A stretch of 11,865 nucleotides of DNA from a virus, in the UHGV virus genome UHGV-1591674; one strand, 5' to 3'. The notes under the pieces were generated by a model, which saw nothing but the letters and a program-made list of their open reading frames with translations, was not told where the DNA came from and made no database searches. Position 1 is the stretch's first letter; the number at the start of each line of letters is the position of its first letter. The position numbers and the translations under genes are program-made. Shown here one piece after another: positions 49 to 11,441 of this stretch.

Positions 49-456
49 TTATTTTTTTTCTGTTCGTTTGCGGGCTTTTAGGAGTTCTTCGAAGAGCTGG
101 TTGAAGTTTTCAACTCGAGCCCGGAGATTTTGGATTTGAGCTTGTTGCTCTGATTCTGGCAAAGAGCGATAGAGCTCAAGCATCTCTTGTTCATCAACGC
201 TTAAAGTTCTCTGCTCTTCAATTGAGACTGGTTCTGCAGGAGTCTGGTCTTCATCACCAAACAAAATCCAAGTAGGGCTGCACTGGAGCACCTTAGCAAG
301 TGCATGCAGGTTCTTACCTGAAGGCTCTGTGTTGTCACTTTCCCATAGCGAAATAGTGGCGTGCGATATCCCGAGAGCTTTTCCAAGATCTCGCTGCGTT
401 AACCCAACATCTTTGCGTCGACGTAATACTCGACGGCCTAAAGTTTCACTATTCAT
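49..456 (-). CDS. Phage repressor, short XRE-family HTH protein (CI-like, lacking an S24 peptidase/autocleavage domain)
   Basis: 135-aa minus-strand ORF, ATG at 456-454 and TAA at 51-49. N-terminal HTH signature LTQRDLGKALGISHATISLWES, then a charged, probably coiled C-terminal tail. Divergent to the cro-like gene. No Shine-Dalgarno upstream, so the mRNA may be leaderless as for lambda cI from PRM. Confidence 0.85.
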   Translation of the reverse strand: MNSETLGRRVLRRRKDVGLTQRDLGKALGISHATISLWESDNTEPSGKNLHALAKVLQCSPTWILFGDEDQTPAEPVSIEEQRTLSVDEQEMLELYRSLPESEQQAQIQNLRARVENFNQLFEELLKARKRTEKK

Positions 457-1509: not shown

Positions 1510-2531
1510 GTCTTGATGCCATGCGCTGGGCTAAGAAAGCTAAAACGGGTCGATCGTCTGCCAAGTCAGTTCTGACCTGGATGGCGGACATGTGCGGCGC
1601 AGACTTTACGACATACCCATCAATTGCGGCGCTTGCCGAGGCGACAGAACTGGATAAAAAAACCGTCCAGGCCAGCCTGCAGCATTTGGTGGAAAACGGT
1701 TTTATCCAGGATACCGGAGAGCGCCGCGGACGCACAAAGCAAATCCCCGTTTACAAGCTGGTGGGCGTTGAGGAAAGCATCGAAGACGCAGAACGAACCC
1801 AAAAACGGGAACATTACCAAAAACGGGACACTTTAAAGAAACCCAAAAACGGGACTGTTAAACCAAACGCCCCCAAAAACGGGTGTATTAAAAGCGGTGA
1901 AACGATCCCGTTTTTTCCGTCAAACGATCCCAAAAACGGGATACGGAATCCCCCAGAGGAATCAAAAGACTTAAACCCCACACATAACGCGCGAGAGTCA
2001 GAGGTCGAACCAGTTAACAACAACCCGGTTCCTGAATACCCCGGACAGCCTGGTATGAATTTTCCCGCCGGAGAGTCATATGGGAAGGTCCCAATGACCA
2101 TTGACTGGAAACCGTCGGCTGACTTTCGCCAGCGTGTTGGATTCTGGGGCATAACGATCCCGGATGGACTGAACCTCAGAGCCGAGCTGAACAGCTTCAT
2201 TGCCTACTGGCAGCCAGAGAATAAAGTTTTTTACCAGTCGCAGTGGGAGCAGAAATTTGCCCGCCACCTGCAACAGGCCAAACCCACTAAACCGCGAGGT
2301 AACTCACATGCTGGACTGGATCCAAACTCCACAGCAAACGCAGCTGTACAGCGAGCACGCGCAGCACGCGCTGCACAACTCCGCGCTCGAGGAGAAGGCG
2401 TGGAAGTTCTGGGTTCTCATGCTGGAAATTTACTCCAGCCGATGGGAAACCAAAAACGGATCGGCTCCGTCGGACCTATGGATTGCTCAGATTGGGAATT
2501 TGACCAGCGACCGGATGACGAGCGTCTGTAA
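1506..2531 (+). CDS. Phage replication initiation protein (N-terminal winged-helix/HTH, C-terminal DnaT-like domain)
   Basis: 341-aa ORF. The N-terminus (MSLDAMRWAKK...LVENGFIQDTGERRGRTKQIPVYKL) resembles phage replication-protein HTH domains; the C-terminal region (IDWKPSADFRQRVGFWGI...FIAYWQPENKVFYQSQWEQKFARHL) resembles the DnaT-like ssDNA-binding domain. Iterons lie inside the gene. The last ~75 codons are low-complexity and overlap the P-like gene, so the true 3' end is uncertain. Confidence 0.8.
   Translation: MSLDAMRWAKKAKTGRSSAKSVLTWMADMCGADFTTYPSIAALAEATELDKKTVQASLQHLVENGFIQDTGERRGRTKQIPVYKLVGVEESIEDAERTQKREHYQKRDTLKKPKNGTVKPNAPKNGCIKSGETIPFFPSNDPKNGIRNPPEESKDLNPTHNARESEVEPVNNNPVPEYPGQPGMNFPAGESYGKVPMTIDWKPSADFRQRVGFWGITIPDGLNLRAELNSFIAYWQPENKVFYQSQWEQKFARHLQQAKPTKPRGNSHAGLDPNSTANAAVQRARAARAAQLRARGEGVEVLGSHAGNLLQPMGNQKRIGSVGPMDCSDWEFDQRPDDERL
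1799..1941. repeat. Origin-of-replication iteron array (5 direct repeats of CCAAAAACGGGA plus one inverted partial copy)
   Basis: Direct copies at 1799-1810, 1817-1828, 1843-1854, 1873-1884 (last base T) and 1930-1941. Inverted partial copy TCCCGTTTTTT at about 1906-1918. Each direct copy encodes a PKNG/KNG motif in the initiator protein. Same architecture as lambda ori inside gene O. Confidence 0.65.
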
Positions 2532-2970
2532 CGCGATGGTTGCTCGCTGTGCGGCGGGTAATTCATGGCCACCTGACCTGGCCGAGTTCGTGACGCTGGT
2601 GGCTGACTGTGACGGTGGGAAGCTTGGACTGAAGGTTTCGGACGTTATGGCGGAATACAGGAACTGGCGCAACGAATCTTACCGTTACGCCAGCACTGAG
2701 GAATATTTCATTGACCGCAAATGTAATCCGGTCCTGTACCAGATTTGCACCGAACTTCGCCGAACTGGTGTTGAGCGACAAATGACCCAACCCGAGCTGG
2801 AGAGACTGGCTGCGGACCAACTGGTGAAGTGGGAAAAACACCTGGAGGATGGCAAGCCGATCCCTCCGGTAAGAAAACAGATTGCGGCGCCGCGCCATCC
2901 GGCAGGACCGACACCCGCGCAGCAGCTGCTTGAAGAATACAAACGCCGTAAAGCGGCTGGCTTAATTTAA
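2308..2970 (+). CDS. Replication protein P-like (DnaB helicase loader)
   Basis: The C-terminal region ELERLAADQLVKWEKHLEDGKPIPPVRKQI parallels lambda P ELRRKAADELVHMTARINRGEAIPEPVKQL, and the central WVL...MTSVCNAMVAR region parallels lambda P. Start set at ATG 2308 (GAGG at 2296-2299); the track ORF opens at 2200 but those codons look like out-of-frame readthrough of the upstream gene. ATG 2419 is an alternative start. Confidence 0.75.
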   Translation: MLDWIQTPQQTQLYSEHAQHALHNSALEEKAWKFWVLMLEIYSSRWETKNGSAPSDLWIAQIGNLTSDRMTSVCNAMVARCAAGNSWPPDLAEFVTLVADCDGGKLGLKVSDVMAEYRNWRNESYRYASTEEYFIDRKCNPVLYQICTELRRTGVERQMTQPELERLAADQLVKWEKHLEDGKPIPPVRKQIAAPRHPAGPTPAQQLLEEYKRRKAAGLI

Positions 2971-2983
2971 CCTGGAGAGTTTT

Positions 2984-3646
2984 ATGGAAACCATTTTAGA
3001 CGTACTGAAAGCGATGGAAAAAGCGACTGCCCGTGAAATTGCGGCACGTATGAAAATTGAGCCTGCGGCGGTGATCGGGATGCTGCGTGAACACGAAGAA
3101 CGTAACGAGGTTATTCAGGTTAACGGGTACTGGAAAGTTGCTACCGGGGAAGTTAAATCACAGCCTAACGCGATCAGTTCTGTCAGCAAAGCGCCGGCAA
3201 GTGTATCAGTCAGCGACGTCATCGCATTACTGGCGGAACATGGGCCACAGACATCACTTGAGCTGGCAACACTGGCAGGTATTGAGTCAAAACGTGTGGC
3301 GCCAATGCTGACTCACCACATGACAAAAGGGCGGATCATCCGCGAAAAAGTAGGCAGCAAGTTTGTTTATTCGGTGCCGGCCACTGCGTCAGTGAAAAAC
3401 AAAAGCTCCGCACCACGGGAACCGGAGGCATCAATTCCACCGGTACCAGAAAAATCTGTCACTGAAATTGTTGAGGAAATCCCCGCTTTCGTCAGCCGTC
3501 CTGATGATCTGCTGATCCCAACGGTGCGCGGCATCTCAAATGAAATTCGTCGCACAAAAGCGAAGCTGGCTAACCTGGAAAAACTTCGTGAAGCCGTTCG
3601 CAGCATTCGCAAACACGGCGCGCTGATGCAGGAGCTGGCGCAATGA
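2984..3646 (+). CDS. Hypothetical phage early protein with N-terminal winged-helix-like domain (possibly DUF1627-type)
   Basis: 220-aa ORF, GGAGAG upstream of ATG 2984. N-terminus METILDVLKAMEKATAREIAARMKIEPAAVIGMLREHEE is wHTH-like and paralogous to the N-terminus of the 4085..4339 product. Stop overlaps the next start (ATGA). Confidence 0.8.
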   Translation: METILDVLKAMEKATAREIAARMKIEPAAVIGMLREHEERNEVIQVNGYWKVATGEVKSQPNAISSVSKAPASVSVSDVIALLAEHGPQTSLELATLAGIESKRVAPMLTHHMTKGRIIREKVGSKFVYSVPATASVKNKSSAPREPEASIPPVPEKSVTEIVEEIPAFVSRPDDLLIPTVRGISNEIRRTKAKLANLEKLREAVRSIRKHGALMQELAQ

Positions 3647-3867
3647 AACAGTCTGAGTTAACGCGCTGTCCGACCTGCGGAAATATGCCCGAATACGCGC
3701 TAAAGCCAAACCATATGGGATGGGTATGGGGTGGATTGAAATGTCCGTATGACCATTACCGCGTGAATTTGGATGGTCCAGCCGGTAGCCGCGTGCAGGC
3801 AGAAAAAAAGCTGGCGCCACAGTGGATTGAACTGGTCGAAAAAGTTAATCAGGAGAAATCAGCATGA
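3643..3867 (+). CDS. Small zinc-ribbon-like protein, possibly Lar-family restriction-alleviation protein (tentative)
   Basis: 74-aa ORF translationally coupled on both sides (ATGA overlaps). CPTCG near the N-terminus and CPYDH later resemble the CPFCG-type zinc ribbon of Lar-family proteins. Weak call from memory. Confidence 0.6.
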   Translation: MKQSELTRCPTCGNMPEYALKPNHMGWVWGGLKCPYDHYRVNLDGPAGSRVQAEKKLAPQWIELVEKVNQEKSA

Positions 3868-4088
3868 AAATCGCTTACCAGGACTATGGGGCCGTGGCGA
3901 AAATCGTTATCACCAGTACCGCATTTGAGTTTCGTAAGCATAATCGGGTGGTTGATACCTCCCTGATCTGCACGCCAGGAATAGTTGCAAACCGTAGTGG
4001 AATGTTCTTCATGAAGTCGGTTTTGTCCGGTAAATCCCGCGACATGCTGCGTGCGTACAAAACAATACTGCGGGAGGAAAGACGATGA
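3864..4088 (+). CDS. Hypothetical small phage protein
   Basis: 74-aa ORF, ATG 3864 overlapping the upstream stop, stop overlapping the next ATG at 4085. Sits in a co-directional coupled gene chain. No recognisable motif. Confidence 0.6.
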   Translation: MKIAYQDYGAVAKIVITSTAFEFRKHNRVVDTSLICTPGIVANRSGMFFMKSVLSGKSRDMLRAYKTILREERR

Positions 4089-4339
4089 CTATATTCGAAT
4101 ACATTCAGTCTCACCCAAATACCACCAGCAGTGAAATAGCCAGGAGCATGAATAAAAACCCTTCTTCAGTCTCGGGCATGCTGTCACAACTCTACAGTGC
4201 TGGTCGGATCGTAAAGTCTGGTGTTCGCAGGGGTGTCCCTGCATACCGTGTTAACGATATGCCGTTTGGGTGCAGTAACAGCTTAACCATGATGTTTAAC
4301 CAACTATTGAACAGAGCCAGACAGGGAGCTGCACAATGA
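4085..4339 (+). CDS. Hypothetical winged-helix DNA-binding protein
   Basis: 84-aa ORF. SSEIARSMNKNPSSVSGMLSQLYSAGRI parallels the wHTH segment of the 2984..3646 product. Translationally coupled on both sides. Confidence 0.7.
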   Translation: MTIFEYIQSHPNTTSSEIARSMNKNPSSVSGMLSQLYSAGRIVKSGVRRGVPAYRVNDMPFGCSNSLTMMFNQLLNRARQGAAQ

Positions 4340-4680
4340 GTAAATCTCTGAACGCACGTTGCATCCGTCGCTGGACCGTCGAATTTAAAGGCCGCTGCGA
4401 TTCAAAATACAGTCCGTACTGGCGTAAGCACCACCTTCGCAGTTACATCCGGGAATGCGCCCTGACCACCGCTGATTGCATGGTCGAGCGTATGGCTGAG
4501 GATAATGCGATGGTAGATTTTCAGGGGGCTAATCGAGGATGGTCGCCGGAGTTCTCTGCCTGGTACCACGAACGCCGTGAACAGTATCTCAAAGAGGCGC
4601 GCGACTATCTGAACGAAGACGCCACCAATGACGAGATCGACGAGGAAATCCAGAACGAGCTGGAGGCCTGGAATGACTGA
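4336..4680 (+). CDS. Hypothetical phage protein with acidic C-terminus
   Basis: 114-aa ORF, ATG 4336 overlapping the upstream stop. Acidic C-terminal tail NEDATNDEIDEEIQNELEAWND. Confidence 0.7.
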   Translation: MSKSLNARCIRRWTVEFKGRCDSKYSPYWRKHHLRSYIRECALTTADCMVERMAEDNAMVDFQGANRGWSPEFSAWYHERREQYLKEARDYLNEDATNDEIDEEIQNELEAWND

Positions 4681-4876: not shown

Positions 4877-5105
4877 CCGAGGCAACCAGCAATCCCCGTT
4901 AGCGCGTCAGGCATGCGACATAGCACTGGCCACTCATGCAGAACGTTACGGCGACTATGGCCGCAGCAAGATGAAGGAGACATACACGGTGAGAGTTGAA
5001 GGCGTGAAGGTATGGGTTGAGGTGGTGAACCGTAAGGCGAGCTACGTGGCCACAGCAATGACAGGTATGCGCCGGTTGCGCGCACTTCCGGGTCAGGTTT
5101 CTTGA
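4863..5105 (+). CDS. Hypothetical small phage protein
   Basis: Start taken at ATG 4863 (14-nt overlap with the upstream gene); the track ORF opens at 4794. Its 3' end (5062-5105) overlaps the open methyltransferase-like reading frame. Confidence 0.5.
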   Translation: MRLINRGNQQSPLARQACDIALATHAERYGDYGRSKMKETYTVRVEGVKVWVEVVNRKASYVATAMTGMRRLRALPGQVS

Positions 5106-5214
5106 TATTCGCGCCGAAGAGCACGAGCTGTGCGACGGTCGGCGCCTGGTTATCAGTCCCGACCTGATTTCAGACTTTCGTTCACTGCCGTTCGCTGATT
5201 CTTCTTTTCCAGTT

Positions 5215-5493
5215 GTGGTGTTTGACCCACCGCATCTCGAGCGCGTTGGCCAGTCTGCCTGGATGGGTAAAAAATACGGGCGACTGAACAAAAAAACGTG
5301 GCGCTCTGACTTACGCGCCGGTTTCAAAGAGGCTTTTCGCGTACTGCGGCCACATGGCGTGCTCATATTCAAATGGAACGAGACGCAGATCCCGGTTAGC
5401 CAGATTCTGGCGCTTACAGATGTGAAACCTGCAATTGGTCAGCGTACCGGGAAGAACGACAAAACCCACTGGATTATTTTTGTGAAGGACTAA
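5215..5493 (+). CDS. DNA methyltransferase-like N-terminal fragment (amino-methyltransferase motif IV DPPH; probably truncated or pseudogenised)
   Basis: Product carries SSFPVVVFDPPHL (DPP[YFH] motif IV) and AGFKEAFRVLRPHGVLIFKW (the RVLKPGG-type motif of beta-class N6/N4 methyltransferases), but no FxGxG AdoMet motif. Only 92 aa from the first canonical start (GTG 5215, no Shine-Dalgarno). The frame is open upstream to 5062 with methyltransferase-like sequence. Confidence 0.55.
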   Translation: MVFDPPHLERVGQSAWMGKKYGRLNKKTWRSDLRAGFKEAFRVLRPHGVLIFKWNETQIPVSQILALTDVKPAIGQRTGKNDKTHWIIFVKD

Positions 5494-5496
5494 CTC

Positions 5497-5877
5497 ATGG
5501 CAACTAACAACCACCCGGCGCAAGGTCCTGTATCTGTCGATCGCCTGCACCAGATAAGCGAAATACTCAGCAAAGCAGCAGCACAAAGCGACGGCGGTAA
5601 TCTCGGCTACGCAATGGCTGATGCTGTGAAGGTTATCGACGAGTTGCTGTCGGTGCGGAAGACGGCGGCGCAGGAAGCGGTGTATCAGGTATTAGACGAT
5701 GGAAGTTGGACTGATTACAGCAAACAGCAACTGGAGGTCCTGCTTGAATCGAAACCATCCACACTTTTCCGAGTTGCCTACCCATCTCCAAGTTTAACGC
5801 AGCCAGCGCCGGTAGTGGATGATGCTGTGAAGGTGATTGAATGGGTGCTTGAAGCGAGGAATGCGGGGTCGGAATAA
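5497..5877 (+). CDS. Hypothetical phage protein with internal duplicated motif
   Basis: 126-aa ORF. GAAGGA seven nt upstream of ATG 5497. Internal repeat ADAVKVIDELL / DDAVKVIEWVL. Followed by an intrinsic terminator. Confidence 0.7.
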   Translation: MATNNHPAQGPVSVDRLHQISEILSKAAAQSDGGNLGYAMADAVKVIDELLSVRKTAAQEAVYQVLDDGSWTDYSKQQLEVLLESKPSTLFRVAYPSPSLTQPAPVVDDAVKVIEWVLEARNAGSE

Positions 5878-5916
5878 ACAAATAATTAATGCATTGAATG
5901 AATTGTCCATAGAATG

Positions 5917-5948
5917 AAAAACCATCTTATCACGATGGTTTTTTTATT
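5917..5948 (+). terminator. Rho-independent terminator
   Basis: Stem ACCATC (5921-5926) / GATGGT (5934-5939) with loop TTATCAC, flanked by an A-run upstream and a T-run downstream (5940-5946). Marks the transition from GC-rich phage genes to the AT-rich insertion. Confidence 0.6.
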
Positions 5949-6011
5949 ATTTATGGGATAGAAAGAGGGGGTATAAGTTATCTACCTGAAAATAAAAATC
6001 GAGTTAATCAA

Positions 6012-6794
6012 GTGACAACAAAGAATCGACACGGTCTTTCTCGGCAAGTGCCTGCAGAGGTTAAACGAGTTATCAGGCAAAGATGTGGATTTGGCTGCGT
6101 GATCTGTGGCTTCGGATTCTATGAGTACGAGCACTTCGATCCAGATTTTGCTGATGCTACCGAACACAACCCTAATGGAATGACATTGTTATGTTCTCAA
6201 TGTAACCAGAAACGAGCCAGGGGCAGACTGTCCGCTGAAAAGGTTGCTTCAGCTAATGCTCATCCTAAGTGCCTTCAACAAGGGTTTGCGAATGAGCTTT
6301 TTGATTTTCATAGCGAACCATTGGAAATAGTTTTGGGTGGATTAACGTTCTACAACTGCGAGCACCTTATAGTAGTAAATGATAGGCCTATCTTGTCTGT
6401 TCAGTCATCTCCTGAACCAAACTCTCCAATGTTACTCTCGGGAGTATTCTGCGATGTACTAGGAAGGGAGATGTTAAGAATCCATGAGAATGAATGGTCT
6501 GTTAATTTAGATAATTGGGATGTTGACTGTGAGGGGCCGAGAATAACCATTAGAAGTGCTCCCCGTCAGATTGCCCTTGTTTTGAAAATGAATCCCCCGA
6601 GGGGAATAATTGTAGAGCGATTAGACATGACTTTTGAGGGGGTAAGATTTATAGGGGATGAGCAGAACTTGCGATTTACTATGGATGGAAGTAACTGGCA
6701 TAAGTGGTCTGGCTGCTCAATGAGGAACGGCTATGTAGGTATAGCCATTGAGACTAGGCCAAGAGCGGCAAACGATCCTATGTATATATTATGA
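6012..6794 (+). CDS. HNH endonuclease-domain protein (N-terminal zinc-finger HNH, C-terminal domain of unknown function), AT-rich acquired gene
   Basis: 260-aa ORF with GTG start at 6012. N-terminal motif RCGFGCVICGF...YEYEHFDP...HNPNGMTLLCSQCNQKR fits the CxxC...H...N...CxxC HNH fold. Hand-sampled 60-nt lines give about 40-47% GC against about 60% in a flanking phage gene. Preceded by a terminator. In frame with the downstream methyltransferase fragment, separated by a single TGA (6792-6794). Confidence 0.8.
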   Translation: MTTKNRHGLSRQVPAEVKRVIRQRCGFGCVICGFGFYEYEHFDPDFADATEHNPNGMTLLCSQCNQKRARGRLSAEKVASANAHPKCLQQGFANELFDFHSEPLEIVLGGLTFYNCEHLIVVNDRPILSVQSSPEPNSPMLLSGVFCDVLGREMLRIHENEWSVNLDNWDVDCEGPRITIRSAPRQIALVLKMNPPRGIIVERLDMTFEGVRFIGDEQNLRFTMDGSNWHKWSGCSMRNGYVGIAIETRPRAANDPMYIL

Positions 6795-6806
6795 ATTACT
6801 TTCTAT

Positions 6807-7061
6807 TTGTTAATACTGCAACCACATGAGCTTTACCGTGCTCAGGGCTTCCCTGAGTGGTACATCATTGACCAGGACTATCGGGGCAAGAAGTACGCAA
6901 AAGACAAACAAGTTGCCCGCTGTGGTAACGCCGTACCACCGCCGTTCGCTGAAGCGCTGGTCCGGGCTATTTACCGGAGCTTTGTCAGCAGAAAGAAATT
7001 GCAGCTTAATGTCCGAGTTTCAGAGCAGGGTGTAACAAATCCTGCTACTTCAATGACGTAG
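6807..7061 (+). pseudogene. C5-cytosine DNA methyltransferase C-terminal fragment (motifs IX and X only)
   Basis: PHELYRAQGFPEWY and RCGNAVPPPFAEALVRAI correspond to C5-methyltransferase motifs IX (LQGFP) and X (GNAV), matching the C-terminus of the full enzyme at 8717..10210 (RLQGFPD...AIGNSMAVPV). No motifs I, IV or VI precede it. A second diverged copy of its 3' end lies at about 7452-7580. Confidence 0.55.
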
Positions 7062-7070
7062 ATTCAAACT

Positions 7071-7079
7071 TGATATAAT
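7071..7079 (+). promoter_or_regulatory. Extended -10 promoter (TGATATAAT) for the small gene 7108..7344
   Basis: TG at 7071-7072 followed by a perfect TATAAT at 7074-7079, about 30 nt upstream of ATG 7108. Shine-Dalgarno GAGGA at 7096-7100. A hairpin AGGCTC (7080-7085) / GAGCCT (7099-7104) overlaps the ribosome-binding site. Confidence 0.4.
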
Positions 7080-7107
7080 AGGCTCTTCACAACACGAGGA
7101 GCCTAAA

Positions 7108-7344
7108 ATGCACCATTACATGATCCCTATCAACGGAACTGTTCACCTGATTAAGACTGATTCTCTAATCCCTGAAGGGACTGAGTATAGCTTTGAAGGA
7201 GAAAGTCTAATCTGCGCTCATGCCACTTTTAAATCTGGGACGTATGGCTTCCTGATACCAAAGGGAAATCAGTTGAATAGAGAGCATGCGTTCTGGCATG
7301 TAAGTGGAATTCACCCTAACCCCCTGGAAATAGATAAACCGTAA
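7108..7344 (+). CDS. Hypothetical small protein (AT-rich moron, unknown function)
   Basis: 78-aa ORF with a strong ribosome-binding site and its own promoter-like element. Lies between two diverged copies of a methyltransferase 3' end. No recognisable motif. Confidence 0.6.
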   Translation: MHHYMIPINGTVHLIKTDSLIPEGTEYSFEGESLICAHATFKSGTYGFLIPKGNQLNREHAFWHVSGIHPNPLEIDKP

Positions 7345-7447
7345 TCCACATGCCATCGCCCTGAACACACGGTGGCATGCATCCGGCACTTTAACGGAAA
7401 CGTTAAAGTGCAAAATACAATTCGAGCAATATTCAACCAGTTAAAGA

Positions 7448-7587
7448 TGGCGAATACCACCGCCATTTCGTGCCTTCTGCTGTTTCTATTACCCATTACG
7501 CTAATCCTGCCCAAACATCAGCTCGCTGAGGCGCTGGTTAGGGCTAACCTACAGGAGCTTTGTCAGCATAAACAAATAGCGGCGTAA
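7448..7587 (+). pseudogene. Degenerate second copy of the C5-methyltransferase 3' end
   Basis: DNA at 7452-7461 (TACCACCGCC) and 7522-7580 aligns with 6933-7005 at roughly 80% identity, interrupted by a ~50-bp insertion. The track ORF 7372..7587 ends in AEALVRANLQELCQ, mirroring AEALVRAIYRSFVS in the 6807..7061 fragment. Confidence 0.45.
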
Positions 7588-7604
7588 TAAAACATTGCTA
7601 ATTC

Positions 7605-7632
7605 AACCCACTACGGCGGGTTTTCTTTTTTT
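7605..7632 (+). terminator. Rho-independent terminator
   Basis: Stem AACCC (7605-7609) / GGGTT (7618-7622) followed by TTCTTTTTTT (7623-7632). Confidence 0.5.
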
Positions 7633-7694
7633 CCTACTGACAGAAAATTAACAATTTGTGCTCTTAAAACGTTGATCATTTTCGTGCATAGGTA

Positions 7695-7714
7695 TACTGT
7701 ATAAAAATACAGTA
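7695..7714. promoter_or_regulatory. LexA box (SOS operator) overlapping the dinI-like promoter
   Basis: Perfect 20-bp palindrome TACTGTATAAAAATACAGTA matching the CTGT-N8-ACAG LexA consensus. It lies 19 nt upstream of the ATG of a DinI homolog. -35-like TTGATC at 7672-7677 and -10-like TATACT at 7693-7698 overlap the box. Confidence 0.75.
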
Positions 7715-7732
7715 TATGCAATGGAGGCCATT

Positions 7733-7969
7733 ATGAAAGTTGAATTAACCATTGATCGCATGAAAGAACTTCCTAAAGGCGCGGTACCAGCACTGGAGAA
7801 AGAATTGCTTAAGCGTCTGAATGATCACTATGACAATTGCAGACTCACAATCCGCCGTGCCGGTTCAGATGGGTTAAGTGTTTTTGGCGGTGACAAGGAC
7901 GACAAAAAGAAAATTGAATCAATCCTCCAGGATACCTGGGAAAGTGCAGACGAGTGGTTTGTTAACTAA
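7733..7969 (+). CDS. dinI: DinI-family DNA-damage-inducible protein
   Basis: GGAGG at 7723-7727 five nt before ATG 7733. Product ends ILQDTWESADEWFVN, closely matching E. coli DinI (ILQETWESADDWFV). A LexA box sits immediately upstream. Confidence 0.85.
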   Translation: MKVELTIDRMKELPKGAVPALEKELLKRLNDHYDNCRLTIRRAGSDGLSVFGGDKDDKKKIESILQDTWESADEWFVN

Positions 7970-8090
7970 CACCCCTTAGCTGGTAGCTCCTGCTGCCATT
8001 TTTTAAATCGAGTTTCCGCATCGCCTCGCGCAATTATTGCCAGGTAATTCAGGTCGATTCAGGTGTGGGAATCTTTGCAAGGGGCATCTC

Positions 8091-8273: not shown

Positions 8274-8417
8274 GTTGGGTTATACTCAACACGGGTCTGA
8301 ACAGCCCGCTGAGTAACACTGCGCCAACCGGGAAAACGCGATGGCGCATAAAACTGAATTACCCCATTCACACCGTTCCTTCGTGAGCGGTGTCGCTGTT
8401 TGTGCTGGTGGTGCAGC

Positions 8418-8720
8418 ATGAGCAGATCAAAGACCAAAGCCGAAAAACTTCATCTTTCCCGCGTAGCCGGGCTGGGTTGTATTGTCTGCAAAAACCTGAA
8501 GCTGGGTGAAACCCCAGCAGAGATACATCACATCCGAACTGGCCAGGGAGTTGGCCAGCGCGCTGACAATTTCAAAGTTATTCCTCTTTGCCCAATCCAT
8601 CACCGTCAGGGCGGACACGGCATAGCCATTCATGCTGGCCGCCAGTCCTGGGAAAACAATTTCGGTACTGAAACAGAGTTGCTGGTGCAGGTTCTCTACG
8701 AACTGGGGGAATCAGCGTGA
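8418..8720 (+). CDS. Ref-like recombination-enhancement HNH-type nuclease (small phage HNH protein)
   Basis: Start at ATG 8418 (GGTGGTG upstream). Product contains CIVC...EIHHIRTGQG...CPIHHRQGGHG, a CxxC/HH pattern typical of Ref-family HNH proteins. Stop overlaps the GTG start of the methyltransferase (GTGA at 8717-8720). Confidence 0.65.
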   Translation: MSRSKTKAEKLHLSRVAGLGCIVCKNLKLGETPAEIHHIRTGQGVGQRADNFKVIPLCPIHHRQGGHGIAIHAGRQSWENNFGTETELLVQVLYELGESA

Positions 8721-10210
8721 GTATTACTTATGGTTCAGTATGTAGTGGAATTGAGGCTGCAAGTATAGCGTGGGAGGTTTTGGGCTGGCGACCGTCATGG
8801 TTCTCTCAGTTCGATCCTGAACACAATTATAAAAACGGTCCAGATTTCCCATCCGCTGTTCTGGCGTATCGCTGGCCGCACGTAACAAACCTCGGTGATA
8901 TGACCAAAATCGCTGCAGCAATACGGCGCGGAGAAATCCAGGCACCAGACATTCTGGTTGGTGGCACACCGTGCCAGGCATTCAGCATCGCTGGTTTGCG
9001 CAATGGTCTGACTGATTCCCGCGGTCAATTAACTCTCGCCTTTGTAGAACTGGTAAACGCAATAGATGAAAAACGAAGAGAACAGGGAAAACCTCCCGTC
9101 ATTGTCGTCTGGGAAAACGTACCCGGAGTATTCAGCAGCAGAGATAACGCTTTCGGATGTTTTCTTGCAGGGCTTGCCGGCGAAAGCCGTGAACTGGAAT
9201 CACCAGGGCGAAAATGGACAAACGCTGGTTATGTGCTGGGACCAGAAAGGGCTGTCTGCTGGCGAGTGCTCGATGCTCAATTTTTCGGAGTGGCCCAACG
9301 ACGCCGCCGTGTGTTTGTTGTCGCAAGCGCTAGAACCGATATCGATCCCGCAAAAATACTTTTTGAGTCCGAAGGCCTGCGCCGGGATACTCCGCCGCGC
9401 CGAAAAGCGGGGAAGGGCATTACCGCAAATACTGGGCGTCGCATTGCTAACGGTAGCCACTGGGATGGGGAATATAATCCACATCCAACCCTCAACCAGT
9501 CACACAACATTGGGGGCATAGGTCAAAGCAACCAGGAATTATTCAGCCAGCGCGGAGGTGGAATCGTTGGTGTCTTTCGCATGCGGGCATTTGGTGATTA
9601 TGTTAATGATGAAACCTCATCCACTGTTAAAGCGCGCGACCATAAAGATGCAACCGATCTCACTGTCACTTATTCGGACGTCAGCAGGACATTGCTTGCC
9701 AAATCTAATGACAGCATGGCTGAAGATTTGGATACATATGCCATTCACGGCACACAAGACCCTGGCACGCTCAAAGACATGGCTCATACACTGGGGCGCA
9801 ATCATGGGCAGGAGAATGCCGTTGCTTATGCATTCAAGGCTGGTCAGGGTGCAAAAGCTGGTGGCATTGGCTGGGCAGAGGAACAATCCCCGACACTGAC
9901 TGCCGCCAGCAGTGGATCGAATTTATCCCCTTCAGTGATGAAAAATATGACCGTTCGCCGCCTGACGCCTGTCGAATGCGAGCGCCTGCAGGGCTTCCCC
10001 GATAACCACACTTTAATCCCCCGGGGTAAGCGCAAGCAGATTACGGCGGATGAATACGCCTATGTGCGCCACCACAACCCAAAGATAACAGCAGAGGAAG
10101 CCTACCGACTGGCGAAAGATGGTCTGCGCTACAAAGCGATCGGCAACAGCATGGCCGTACCGGTTATGCACTGGATCGGTAAAAGAATTAAGGAGGCTCT
10201 TAATGCCTGA
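8717..10210 (+). CDS. DNA (cytosine-5)-methyltransferase
   Basis: 497-aa ORF carrying motif I (GSVCSGIEA), motif IV (GGTPCQAFSIAG), motif VI (VVWENVPG), motif IX (RLQGFPD) and motif X (AIGNSMAVPV). About 245 aa separate the ENV region from motif IX. Translationally coupled to the upstream Ref-like gene and to rusA downstream. Confidence 0.9.
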   Translation: MSITYGSVCSGIEAASIAWEVLGWRPSWFSQFDPEHNYKNGPDFPSAVLAYRWPHVTNLGDMTKIAAAIRRGEIQAPDILVGGTPCQAFSIAGLRNGLTDSRGQLTLAFVELVNAIDEKRREQGKPPVIVVWENVPGVFSSRDNAFGCFLAGLAGESRELESPGRKWTNAGYVLGPERAVCWRVLDAQFFGVAQRRRRVFVVASARTDIDPAKILFESEGLRRDTPPRRKAGKGITANTGRRIANGSHWDGEYNPHPTLNQSHNIGGIGQSNQELFSQRGGGIVGVFRMRAFGDYVNDETSSTVKARDHKDATDLTVTYSDVSRTLLAKSNDSMAEDLDTYAIHGTQDPGTLKDMAHTLGRNHGQENAVAYAFKAGQGAKAGGIGWAEEQSPTLTAASSGSNLSPSVMKNMTVRRLTPVECERLQGFPDNHTLIPRGKRKQITADEYAYVRHHNPKITAEEAYRLAKDGLRYKAIGNSMAVPVMHWIGKRIKEALNA

Positions 10211-10562
10211 ATATCCAATTACACCCGTCGGTAAGCCCAGAATGACGCGCGCTGACAAATGGAAAAAGCGCCCCGAGGTTCTGCGTTACCGGGCTTTCTG
10301 TGATGAAGTTCGTTTGCAGTGTGTTGAGCTACCGGAAAGTGGTTCACATGTCACCTTCATTCTTCCGATGCCAGCAAGCTGGAGCAAAAAGAAACGGGCT
10401 GAGTTAAACGGCAGACCTCACCAACAAAAGCCCGATGTCGATAACCTTACCAAGTCATTACTGGACGCATTGTTTGAGGATGATGCTCATATATGGGATG
10501 TCCGGGTATCAAAATCATGGGGAGAAACCGGGAGAATAATTATTGAGGAGCTAGAAGCATGA
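10203..10562 (+). CDS. rusA: Holliday-junction resolvase RusA
   Basis: ATG 10203 overlaps the methyltransferase stop (ATGCCTGA). 119-aa product with the RusA signature KPDVDNLTKSLLDALF. The track ORF opens at 10119 but its N-terminal extension is out-of-frame methyltransferase sequence. Confidence 0.85.
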   Translation: MPEYPITPVGKPRMTRADKWKKRPEVLRYRAFCDEVRLQCVELPESGSHVTFILPMPASWSKKKRAELNGRPHQQKPDVDNLTKSLLDALFEDDAHIWDVRVSKSWGETGRIIIEELEA

Positions 10563-11158
10563 CGCCACGCCAACGCAGACTACAGCAGTCAGCATTTGAA
10601 AAAGCAGCAGCTGCGCCGCGTAAAAGCTGGCTGGGTAAATGCATTCTCCTGACGGGGATCCAGTCCGGATGGATTAAATCCCTGCTCACTACATGGGGTG
10701 AGGGTGTGGGAGGAAAAACCGCACCCCGTATGCCGCGAGGCCATGCGTGCTGGAATGTGCTTAAGGGACGGAACTGGTCAGATAAGGCGTTAGAGCGATT
10801 CACCGTTGCGTTAAATCAGGCGAGAGAAGAGGGATTCCGTGGACAGCAGGCAATGAACAGGGCACATAGCATTCTCTGGCCCCAGTCACCTGCCAGTGTA
10901 ATTGACGAGGCCCTGCATAATGACGATGTCGATTTTGTTGAGCAATGCGTGCTGCAGGCGCTGAATATAAACGATCCGGTGTATGTGGTAGGTCTTCAGT
11001 ATTACACCACCCGAAAAAAAATCTCAGACATAACCCGGGAACTGCAGGCGATTGCGCCATGGTTAACTGACGGGGAGGCGAGAAAGCGCGTGCGCTGGTG
11101 CCTGGAAATATTCAGAGCAAAGGTCTTTTTGGAAGCACGCAAACAACTATCTGAATAG
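10559..11158 (+). CDS. Late-gene antitermination protein, Q-like (tentative)
   Basis: 199-aa ORF, ATG 10559 overlapping the rusA stop (ATGA). Sits immediately upstream of a strong promoter, terminators and a holin-like gene, which is the canonical Q position. Confidence 0.55.
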   Translation: MTPRQRRLQQSAFEKAAAAPRKSWLGKCILLTGIQSGWIKSLLTTWGEGVGGKTAPRMPRGHACWNVLKGRNWSDKALERFTVALNQAREEGFRGQQAMNRAHSILWPQSPASVIDEALHNDDVDFVEQCVLQALNINDPVYVVGLQYYTTRKKISDITRELQAIAPWLTDGEARKRVRWCLEIFRAKVFLEARKQLSE

Positions 11159-11207
11159 ACTCAATGAACCATTTTTTGGCTATTAGTGCTATTTTTTGAT
11201 AATGGAG

Positions 11208-11235
11208 TTGAAAACGGGCCAGAAAATCAGATAAT
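11208..11235 (+). promoter_or_regulatory. Candidate late promoter (PR'-like): TTGAAA-16 bp-GATAAT
   Basis: -35 TTGAAA at 11208-11213, 16-bp spacer, -10 GATAAT at 11230-11235, located 50-80 nt downstream of the Q-like gene stop. An intrinsic terminator follows about 70 nt downstream, giving the classic PR'-qut-tR' layout. Confidence 0.45.
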
Positions 11236-11417: not shown

Positions 11418-11441
11418 CCTCGCAATTCTGCGGGGCTTTTT
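11418..11441 (+). terminator. Rho-independent terminator (second terminator in the late leader)
   Basis: Stem CCTCGCA (11418-11424), loop ATTC, stem TGCGGGG (11429-11435) with one G-U pair, then C and TTTTT (11437-11441). Confidence 0.5.

Follow-up and report, generated by a model that had tools for sequence, protein, structure and literature searches.

We analyzed an 11,865-nucleotide (nt) stretch of the virus genome UHGV-1591674 (the window; all coordinates are positions in the whole window, and features lie on the plus strand unless marked otherwise), focusing on a phage gene for a C5 DNA cytosine methyltransferase and on the small nuclease gene that overlaps its start. The stretch makes up the early-right arm of a prophage that is lambda-like and of the Citrobacter type. 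The closest copies of both proteins, 95 to 98% identical, come from Citrobacter freundii, C. portucalensis, and C. braakii, and a close copy was not found in complete Escherichia coli genomes. The two genes belong to a block that follows dinI (7721 to 7969, assigned by a profile match) and runs in the order nuclease (8418 to 8720), methyltransferase (8717 to 10210), RusA (10203 to 10562), and Q-like antiterminator (10559 to 11158). An earlier reading of the letters alone (the sequence-only reading) had reported the nuclease and methyltransferase open reading frames (ORFs) and the GTGA overlap between them, and both were confirmed.

The methyltransferase, a protein of 497 amino acids (aa), was assigned to the P1 Dmt family from its matches to PF00145 (E value, 4.7e-37; 128.6 bits, with a cutoff of 22) and TIGR00675 (125.6 bits; cutoff, 100.65) and from its 50.5% identity, over aa 3 to 495, to the C5 N-terminal half of P1 Dmt. 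Genes of this kind are already annotated as "DNA cytosine methyltransferase." Six motifs follow each other in canonical order: I (CSGIE, aa 9), IV (PCQ, aa 85), VI (ENV, aa 133), VIII (QRRRR, aa 194), IX (RRLTPVECERLQGFP, aa 414), and X (GNS, aa 476). The first part of the catalytic core (aa 1 to 198; 8717 to 9310), as delimited by motif positions and invariant alignment columns, contains motifs I, IV, VI, and VIII, with motif I in a CSGIEA variant that is invariant across the family. Motifs IX (9956 to 10000) and X (GNSMAVPV; 10142 to 10165), both placed by reading the motifs, enclose a helical segment of 47 aa (10001 to 10141) that is conserved in the clade and in P1 Dmt and exceeds the family norm by ∼22 aa. 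The protein ends 15 aa past motif X and has no C-terminal Dam domain (PF02086). Motifs VIII and IX are 215 aa apart and motifs IX and X 47 to 49 aa, compared with a norm of 27 aa for the latter distance in the wider family and 324 positions for the whole Pfam model. The sequence-only reading had put ∼245 residues between the ENV region and motif IX, where we measured ∼278, while its ∼45 residues between motifs IX and X were roughly right. A sequence search of the PDB with the whole methyltransferase returned only the core motifs of M.HhaI and M.HaeIII.

The variable region separates motif VIII from motif IX, and in it we distinguished a linker, L0, and five consecutive units of 26 to 39 aa with TL or TV cores, referred to here as cassettes (architecture L0-A-B-C-D-E; boundaries were placed by eye and by local alignment). 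L0 (aa 199 to 245; 9311 to 9451) is conserved in its first half and variable and basic in its second half, and in alignments to the 150 nearest representatives, the stretch that matches best commonly stops at about aa 240 to 250. Cassette A (aa 246 to 284; 9452 to 9568; core HPTLNQS) is swapped for other cassettes in relatives P0012, P0054, P0055, and P0119, and cassette B (aa 285 to 317; 9569 to 9667; core SSTVKARDHKD) is of a type found also in P1 Dmt. Cassette C (aa 318 to 343; 9668 to 9745; core SRTLLAKS) is missing from P0071, P0072, P0100, and the L104 enzyme; cassette D (aa 344 to 371; 9746 to 9829; core AHTLGRNHG) ends in AVAY, and its junction with the next cassette is an insertion hot spot; and cassette E (aa 372 to 408; 9830 to 9940; core SPTLTAASSGSN) occupies its canonical place directly before motif IX. 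A T-[LIV] core is conserved in every cassette family (in the window enzyme, HPTLNQS, SSTVKAR, SRTLLAKS, AHTLGRNHG, and SPTLTAASSG), and most cassettes finish in a hydrophobic strand resembling A-[VI]-A-Y. T-[LIV] occurs eight times in the variable region of the window enzyme, versus 2.8 expected, a count reached by 5 of 2,000 shuffles, and only twice in the remaining 282 residues.

The family comprises 4,338 clusters at 50% identity (E value of ≤1e-30), spread across Proteobacteria, with stand-alone members of 351 to 756 aa and Dam-fused members of 778 to 854 aa. Over the 106 parsable nearest representatives, the region between motifs VIII and IX has a median length of 253 aa (range, 83 to 451), so that the 215 aa of the window enzyme are typical of the subfamily, which is half of what the sequence-only reading had named as refuting it. 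The window gene is thus ordinary within its subfamily, and it is the subfamily itself that is unusual. Two side observations concern the shape of other members. The Dam-fused relatives (P0088, at 5001 to 7337 of the Salmonella locus L090, and P0110 and P0117 from Citrobacter) have the C5 half first and lie in another prophage context, flanked by a PerC-like gene upstream and by a LexA-like gene and rusA downstream, with a 352-aa DUF968 protein further downstream replacing the 100-aa nuclease. In P0350, the loop between motifs IX and X contains an insertion of ∼135 aa with an HAE...C..C signature and a subthreshold match to the cytidine/dCMP deaminase model PF00383 (21.5 bits; cutoff, 25), and in P0355 the same loop contains an insertion of 252 aa; this loop is a second insertion hot spot of the family.

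In a set of 120 homologues, the catalytic motifs are fixed, the distance between motifs VIII and IX varies from 140 to 361 aa, often in steps of ∼38 aa, and the distance between motifs IX and X is constant within clades. Comparison of the variable regions with each other shows mosaics of discrete blocks of 26 to 42 aa, and block seeds placed by local alignment gave about 40 cassette architectures. A-B-C-D-H-E is the commonest among the relatives; others are A-J-B-C-D-H-E, A-B-C-D-H-G-I-E, O-M-N-D-F-E, A-M-P-N-D-E-I, and A-B-C-D-E-I-H-F. The gain of a single cassette is seen most directly in P0003 and P0009, which are 96.8% and 94.6% identical to the window enzyme over all 497 aligned residues and whose sole difference in architecture is one cassette inserted after aa 367 to 368, a 39-aa F in P0003 and a 38-aa G in P0009. 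At the same D/E site, P0028 has H, and P0017 and P0013 have three cassettes (115 to 116 aa); insertions there fall after aa 367 to 369. Cassette order varies as well (G-I-E in Enterobacter enzymes versus G-E-...-I in P0312), and hybrid cassettes joined at the TL core occur in P0057 (H/E), P0063 (C/E), and P0054 (D/E). At the level of DNA, the cassette junctions encode the same amino acids with different codons, and no long DNA repeat that would explain recombination was found there.

Such an array could belong to a monospecific enzyme in which only cassette E reads DNA and cassettes A to D are scaffold or inactive pseudo-domains kept by descent, and A-B-C-D is indeed common to most close relatives, as a scaffold would be. 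However, none of these four cassettes is universal: for each, there are intact relatives that lack it or have another cassette in its place. In P0287, a complete enzyme of 352 aa with six motifs and the N-terminal subtype of the window enzyme, L0 and one B-type cassette, the only cassette present, make up the whole variable region. In other short members, the array consists of little other than J or of A with one further cassette, and the longest member, P0312, has a variable region of 451 aa with ∼11 cassettes. In distant members, conservation is higher in the shared cassettes than in the catalytic core, at 60 to 85% for cassettes of enzymes with cores that are 47 to 60% identical: P0322 is 47 to 48% identical to the window enzyme in the core but 82% in cassette A and 68% in cassette B, and P0312 is 52 to 55% identical in the core but 70% in G, 72% in I, and 67% in E. 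More generally, cassette A is 82 to 85% conserved in relatives with cores that are 48 to 60% identical. This conservation of A and B, like their absence or replacement elsewhere, argues against the monospecific reading.

The cassettes are also under purifying selection. Compared with L084, a 95% identical Citrobacter copy, the variable region shows 41.5 synonymous and 15.5 nonsynonymous differences, corresponding to a ratio of nonsynonymous to synonymous substitution rates (dN/dS) of 0.09; by segment, dN/dS is 0.03 to 0.23 along the gene, with values also given as 0.0 to 0.1 on cassettes A to C, which again speaks against monospecificity. The synonymous rate (dS) against positions 6001 to 7494 of L084 changes strongly along the gene, from 0.09 in the core and cassette A to 0.23 in B and C, 1.5 in D and E, and 0.64 in the C-terminal part. 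This swing from 0.09 to 1.5 indicates intragenic recombination, and therefore a 3′ half of the gene with a recent history different from that of the 5′ half. The same comparison bears on the idea that the gene is decaying or inactive, as two dead methyltransferase genes upstream in the same prophage and a deletion derivative among the relatives (P0058) might lead one to suppose. We consider this extremely improbable, given that the full-length ORF retains six motifs and the catalytic Cys, that it is 95 to 98% identical to several independent Citrobacter copies, and that dN/dS is low in every segment.

As a positive control, we put the methyltransferases of the Bacillus phages SPR, rho11s, H2, and phi3T through the same treatment. 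Their distances between motifs VIII and IX are 215 aa (M.SPRI), 279 aa (rho11s), 279 aa (H2), and 186 aa (phi3T), and they differ from each other by blocks of 33 to 60 aa, each with a T-[LI] core. In these enzymes, tandem recognition domains give several target sequences (PMC12707154, PMC8936443). The suggestion of the sequence-only reading that the window enzyme recalls multispecific phage methyltransferases is thus supported, short of proof, by the gain, loss, and reordering of cassettes together with the Bacillus control, and several of the above results suggest that the cassettes behave as independent recognition domains. We therefore favor, with some confidence, the interpretation that the methyltransferase is an orphan phage C5 enzyme of the P1 Dmt family that carries five target recognition cassettes on one core and would methylate several motifs.

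Several observations weigh against this interpretation. Cassettes A to D showed no significant similarity to characterized recognition domains, and weak similarity was limited to E and to the cassettes F, G, and M, which the window enzyme does not have: E resembles the phi3T target recognition domain SPTLTTMGGG (z, 3.7; 1 of 300 shuffles), and the matches of G to a shared FTVNTIDRHGVA unit and of M to SPTITTN of SPR are marginal (z of ≤3.8, 1 to 2 of 300 shuffles, many tests). Being the sole cassette of the window enzyme to resemble a characterized domain, E would fit the role of a single reader, and A to D also match nothing in the PDB, where a search with an eight-cassette variable region returned nothing relevant. 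Comparison of the cassette families with hhalign detected only E with H (84%) and J with a (83%). Inactive pseudo-domains in the Bacillus phage enzymes were reportedly described by Lange et al. in 1991; because such domains exist there, the cassette count is an upper bound on the number of specificities, and some of the cassettes may be pseudo-domains. An AlphaFold model of the methyltransferase, built from a 28-sequence alignment, was unusable (mean predicted local distance difference test [pLDDT] score of 45, and 22 to 30 in the variable region), and the record of P1 Dmt lists GATC adenine methylation, with C5 methylation only "perhaps." Taking both sides together, we regard a monospecific enzyme with E as the only reader as a real but unlikely alternative.

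The second subject, the nuclease gene (8418 to 8720), encodes 100 aa from an ATG at 8418 that is also the start in homologues (MSRSK...). Its product matches the Ref-core model RecA_dep_nuc, PF16786 (39.5 bits; cutoff, 26.9), as well as DUF968, and aligns by BLASTP to aa 78 to 182 of P1 Ref with 25% identity (E value, 4e-5). Residues C24, H37, H38, C58, H61, and H62 (C-x2-C...HH...C-x2-HH) are invariant, P1 Ref included. A first profile search of the PDB included P1 Ref itself and was therefore circular; it was superseded by a profile made without P1 Ref, whose sole PDB match was 3PLW (E value, 0.0019). Likewise, an AlphaFold2 model of the nuclease (pLDDT, 87.9) gave 3PLW, the P1 Ref structure, as its sole significant Foldseek match in the PDB (E value, 1.7e-5; template modeling [TM] scores, 0.79 and 0.72). 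The description as a Ref-like nuclease in the sequence-only reading is borne out by the Pfam match, the invariant residues, and the fold match, and the NCBI label for relatives is already "Ref family recombination enhancement nuclease." Judged from sequence comparison and the predicted fold, the product is the nuclease core of P1 Ref without the N-terminal basic region of ∼76 residues, the alignment beginning at Ref residue 78. That region is disordered in the crystal and is required for DNA binding by P1 Ref. The steady companions of the nuclease, RusA and NinB, point to a role in recombination.

The junction of the two genes reads ...ctgggggaatcagcGTGAgt... (in wider context, ...ctgggggaatcagcGTGAgtatt...), with the methyltransferase GTG at 8717 to 8719 overlapping the nuclease TGA at 8718 to 8720. 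No possible start lies between the preceding stop and this GTG, and any later start would lose motif I (aa 9 to 13); close homologues begin at the same residue. From the overlap, the sequence-only reading had concluded that the two genes form a cotranslated pair. The overlap is real, but it is not specific to this pair: counting only pairs in which the downstream start lies inside the end of the upstream ORF, overlaps of 4 to 8 nt occur at 11 of the 20 junctions in the window, including methyltransferase/RusA (ATGCCTGA) and RusA/Q (ATGA). In addition, a Shine-Dalgarno-like G run (GGGGG, 8705 to 8709, read from the sequence) precedes the GTG by 7 nt, and translation of the methyltransferase could therefore start independently.

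We therefore weighed the proposal that nuclease and methyltransferase are a functional pair, either as a restriction-modification-like module or through obligatory translational coupling, against the gene order in relatives, where the methyltransferase is absent or elsewhere. Citrobacter prophages of the same backbone (L098 and L100) have nuclease-RusA-Q with no methyltransferase in the fetched flanks, and there the nucleotide identity to the window is 95.4% in the DinI-Rem region, 91.4% in rusA, and 94.3% in Q. The nuclease/RusA junction of these methyltransferase-less flanks reads GGGGGAGTCGACTCATGCCTGA, and the methyltransferase ORF of the window is placed exactly between GGGGGAATCAGC and ATGCCTGA. 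In methyltransferase-less prophages (L097), the GGGGG run precedes the RusA ATG instead. Salmonella salamae prophages have nuclease-RusA-methyltransferase-Q (L103 and L104) or nuclease-RusA-Q (L105 and L106; fetched flanks), the Serratia prophage L107 has nuclease-Q with no methyltransferase in the fetched flanks, and Vibrio phages have the order N6 methyltransferase-NinB-nuclease-RusA. Across 80 species-level loci of the methyltransferase family, the nuclease adjoins the methyltransferase in only 2, where it lies downstream.

On the other side, next to the GTGA overlap itself, the nuclease-methyltransferase-RusA order is kept in Citrobacter and Enterobacter prophages despite differing cassette sets, and in a Klebsiella phage an unrelated N6 methyltransferase overlaps the same nuclease and follows it. 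The nuclease allele beside the methyltransferase is only 74% identical in nucleotide sequence to the methyltransferase-less allele, versus 91 to 95% for the flanks; the nuclease and methyltransferase were therefore exchanged as one block, and the nuclease allele travels with the methyltransferase, which counts against viewing them as mere neighbors. A restriction-modification reading was nevertheless rejected, given the nuclease without a methyltransferase in the fetched flanks of L098, L100, L105, L106, and L107, and the nuclease has the fold of Ref, a recombination nuclease. We consider a functional pair very improbable and the nuclease an operon neighbor, mostly not a dedicated partner, of the methyltransferase.

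A lone Ref-methyltransferase fusion, P0058 (L088, 5273 to 7003), was considered as evidence for a partnership and rejected, because it is an internal deletion without motif I. In this protein, encoded on a single short-read contig, an in-frame deletion joins nuclease residue ∼73 to methyltransferase residue ∼72, and the sequence may represent an inactivated allele or an assembly error.

These observations indicate how the methyltransferase came to lie there and suggest what it does. It entered the prophage lineage as an insertion the size of one ORF, placed precisely where the nuclease stop and the rusA start overlap. It took over the ribosome-binding G run that serves rusA elsewhere and brought a new AAGGAGG for rusA, which lies 6 nt before the rusA ATG within the methyltransferase 3′ end. 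The nuclease is a member of a phage recombination cluster (NinB, Ref-like nuclease, and RusA), a neighbor and not a partner. By analogy with the Bacillus phage enzymes, each cassette would dock the shared catalytic core onto a different DNA sequence, and one enzyme could thereby methylate several motifs and protect phage DNA during replication against more than one restriction system of the host. The enzyme would be made after induction or infection, from the early-right operon upstream of Q, and would be silent in the lysogen. Prophage methyltransferases are commonly silent in lysogens (PMC3526280, PMC12707154).

The left end of the window is consistent with such control. The gene order there is CI-type repressor (49 to 456, minus strand; HTH_3 and Phage_CI_repr), Cro (divergent, 506 to 778), YdaT-like, DUF4222, O-like replication protein with a DnaT domain, P-like, and DUF1627, and we infer that the whole rightward operon, including the methyltransferase gene, is under lysogenic repression of the CI type. 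Because the gene lies in this repressor-controlled early operon, a methylome taken from the lysogen would probably be blank and say little about the enzyme. As a side observation, the P-like ORF (2200 to 2970, from a TTG at 2200) overlaps the O-like ORF (1506 to 2531) by 330 nt, and the P-like gene probably begins at an internal codon near 2528.

At the other end, the RusA Holliday-junction resolvase gene (10203 to 10562; PF05866; E value, 1.6e-15), whose ATG overlaps the methyltransferase stop, is followed by the Q-like antiterminator gene (10559 to 11158; PHROG 753; E value, 9e-61) as the final gene of the block. A consensus scan, the only evidence for these elements, showed a terminator-like hairpin at 8370 to 8393, directly 5′ of the nuclease gene, and, past Q, two promoter-like sites followed by a terminator-like hairpin (11176 to 11235 and 11418 to 11435). 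The arrangement past Q looks like a late promoter with a Q-antiterminated terminator, as expected. An Rfam scan of the window gave no match.

Upstream of DinI, the window holds a lower-GC stretch of small accessory ORFs (5600 to 8000; guanine-plus-cytosine fraction, 0.42 to 0.46) and two truncated methyltransferase genes. The first (5104 to 5493; PHROG 954, positions 115 to 201 of 229) is a 5′-truncated remnant of an amino (N6/N4-type) methyltransferase with a DPPH motif; its frame is open back to 5104 with no start before a GTG at 5215, and 85% nucleotide identity to the Salmonella phage Oslo methyltransferase begins abruptly at 5104. The second (6807 to 7061; PF00145, positions 278 to 323 of 324) retains the last ∼57 codons of a C5 methyltransferase, with motifs IX and X only, and is 88% identical in nucleotide sequence to gp46 of mEp237, itself annotated as a C-terminal fragment. 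The separate methyltransferase fragments noted in the sequence-only reading are thus real, as judged from the truncated profile matches and the DNA identities, and the two remnants with their phage matches support its proposal of several methyltransferase acquisitions. An N6_N4 methyltransferase gene follows Q in L097 and other related prophages. Taken with the remnants, the methyltransferase genes that related prophages carry elsewhere mark this region as one where such genes have landed repeatedly.

Between the two dead genes, in the lower-GC stretch, lies a 260-aa ORF (6012 to 6794) with an N-terminal HNH-like Cys/His region, a match to PHROG 6544 (E value, 2e-102), a weak match to the HNH region of IscB, and no Pfam or PADLOC match; the small neighboring ORFs likewise gave no PADLOC match. 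It may be a free-standing nuclease of the homing or defense type that has taken the place of the 5′ portion of the C5 methyltransferase gene whose 3′ end survives at 6807 to 7061. In the sister Citrobacter prophages L085 and L086, which have an identical methyltransferase, the slot that corresponds to about 5000 to 7700 of the window, where the window has the remnants and the 260-aa HNH-like ORF, contains (at 1822 to 4455, minus strand) an 877-aa Mrr_cat and nSTAND1 gene together with an ORF of 404 aa. From the replication genes to DinI, the region resembles a hot spot for defense and accessory genes.

Beyond the window, we tentatively propose, at a little short of even confidence, that the P1 Dmt family, found in Proteobacteria and their phages, might represent another lineage of multispecific C5 methyltransferases, independent of that of the Bacillus phages and much larger, with 1 to ∼11 cassettes shuffled at conserved junctions like A-[VI]-A-Y; three to five unrelated motifs would then be targets of the window enzyme, and a role as a multitarget antirestriction methyltransferase would account for the long-unexplained C5 half of P1 Dmt. 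Multispecific C5 methyltransferases outside Bacillus/Firmicutes phages were not found in full-text searching of the literature, which did not cover REBASE, and a 2025 review of restriction-modification ascribes several recognition domains per polypeptide to Bacillus temperate phages alone (PMC12707154). The genes themselves are ordinary and annotated; what is new, in that we did not find it described, is a whole family, P1 Dmt included, with a cassette-built variable region of the multispecific type. If this proposal is true, enterobacterial prophages and P1 are a natural collection, and a very large one, of interchangeable recognition modules, and natural variants that differ by exactly one cassette would show directly which DNA motif goes with which cassette. 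This would help decode how C5 methyltransferases read sequence, provide parts for engineered methyltransferases, and explain the passage of temperate phages between Citrobacter, Enterobacter, and Salmonella strains with different restriction systems. For annotation, a single-specificity, Dcm-like label should be avoided for genes of this family, and the overlap of genes in a nin-type operon is not proof of partnership.

Among known systems, the nuclease is comparable to P1 Ref, a RecA-dependent HNH nuclease (3PLW), with which it shares the fold, the C-x2-C/HH/C-x2-HH residues, and PF16786. The two differ in length (186 aa in P1 Ref versus 100 aa) at 25% identity, and the window nuclease, unlike P1 Ref, is located in a NinB/RusA-type recombination cluster. 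The block itself resembles the nuclease-RusA-Q blocks of lambdoid nin regions (YbcO-RusA in DLP12 and HNH-RusA in mEp237), where a small Zn/HNH nuclease gene overlaps rusA upstream of Q and is preceded, as in the window, by DinI and small ORFs; the HNH protein upstream of RusA in mEp237 has no sequence similarity to the window nuclease. Unlike these blocks, the window has a methyltransferase ORF inserted at the nuclease/rusA overlap.

For the methyltransferase, the closest known system is P1 Dmt, which likewise has a motif I of the CSGIEA type, a long segment between motifs IX and X (49 aa in both), and a repressor-controlled phage gene, and which shares the B-type cassette (AFRMAAFGEYIDDETASTVKARDFKDATDLAV) with the window enzyme. 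In contrast, P1 Dmt has a C-terminal Dam domain, whereas the window protein stands alone, its distance between motifs VIII and IX is ∼173 aa, its other cassettes differ, and its gene comes after hrdC and not after a Ref-like nuclease gene. The Bacillus enzymes (M.SPRI, M.phi3TI, M.rho11sI, and M.H2I, as well as M.phiBssHII and M.BceSV) are similar in having one core with an enlarged region between motifs VIII and IX (of the same 215 aa in SPR and the window enzyme) and consecutive short T-[LIV] units that are present or absent as whole units between relatives, and in being orphan enzymes borne by temperate phages (PMC12707154, PMC3526280, PMC8936443). They are not of the same lineage: BLASTP against M.SPRI aligned only motifs IV to VIII (30% identity) and IX, with nothing significant in the variable region, and they differ from the window enzyme in the type of motif I and in the conserved linker before the cassettes. 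The repertoire of the P1 Dmt family is also far larger than that of the Bacillus enzymes, with at least 19 cassette types seen and 1 to ∼11 cassettes per enzyme.

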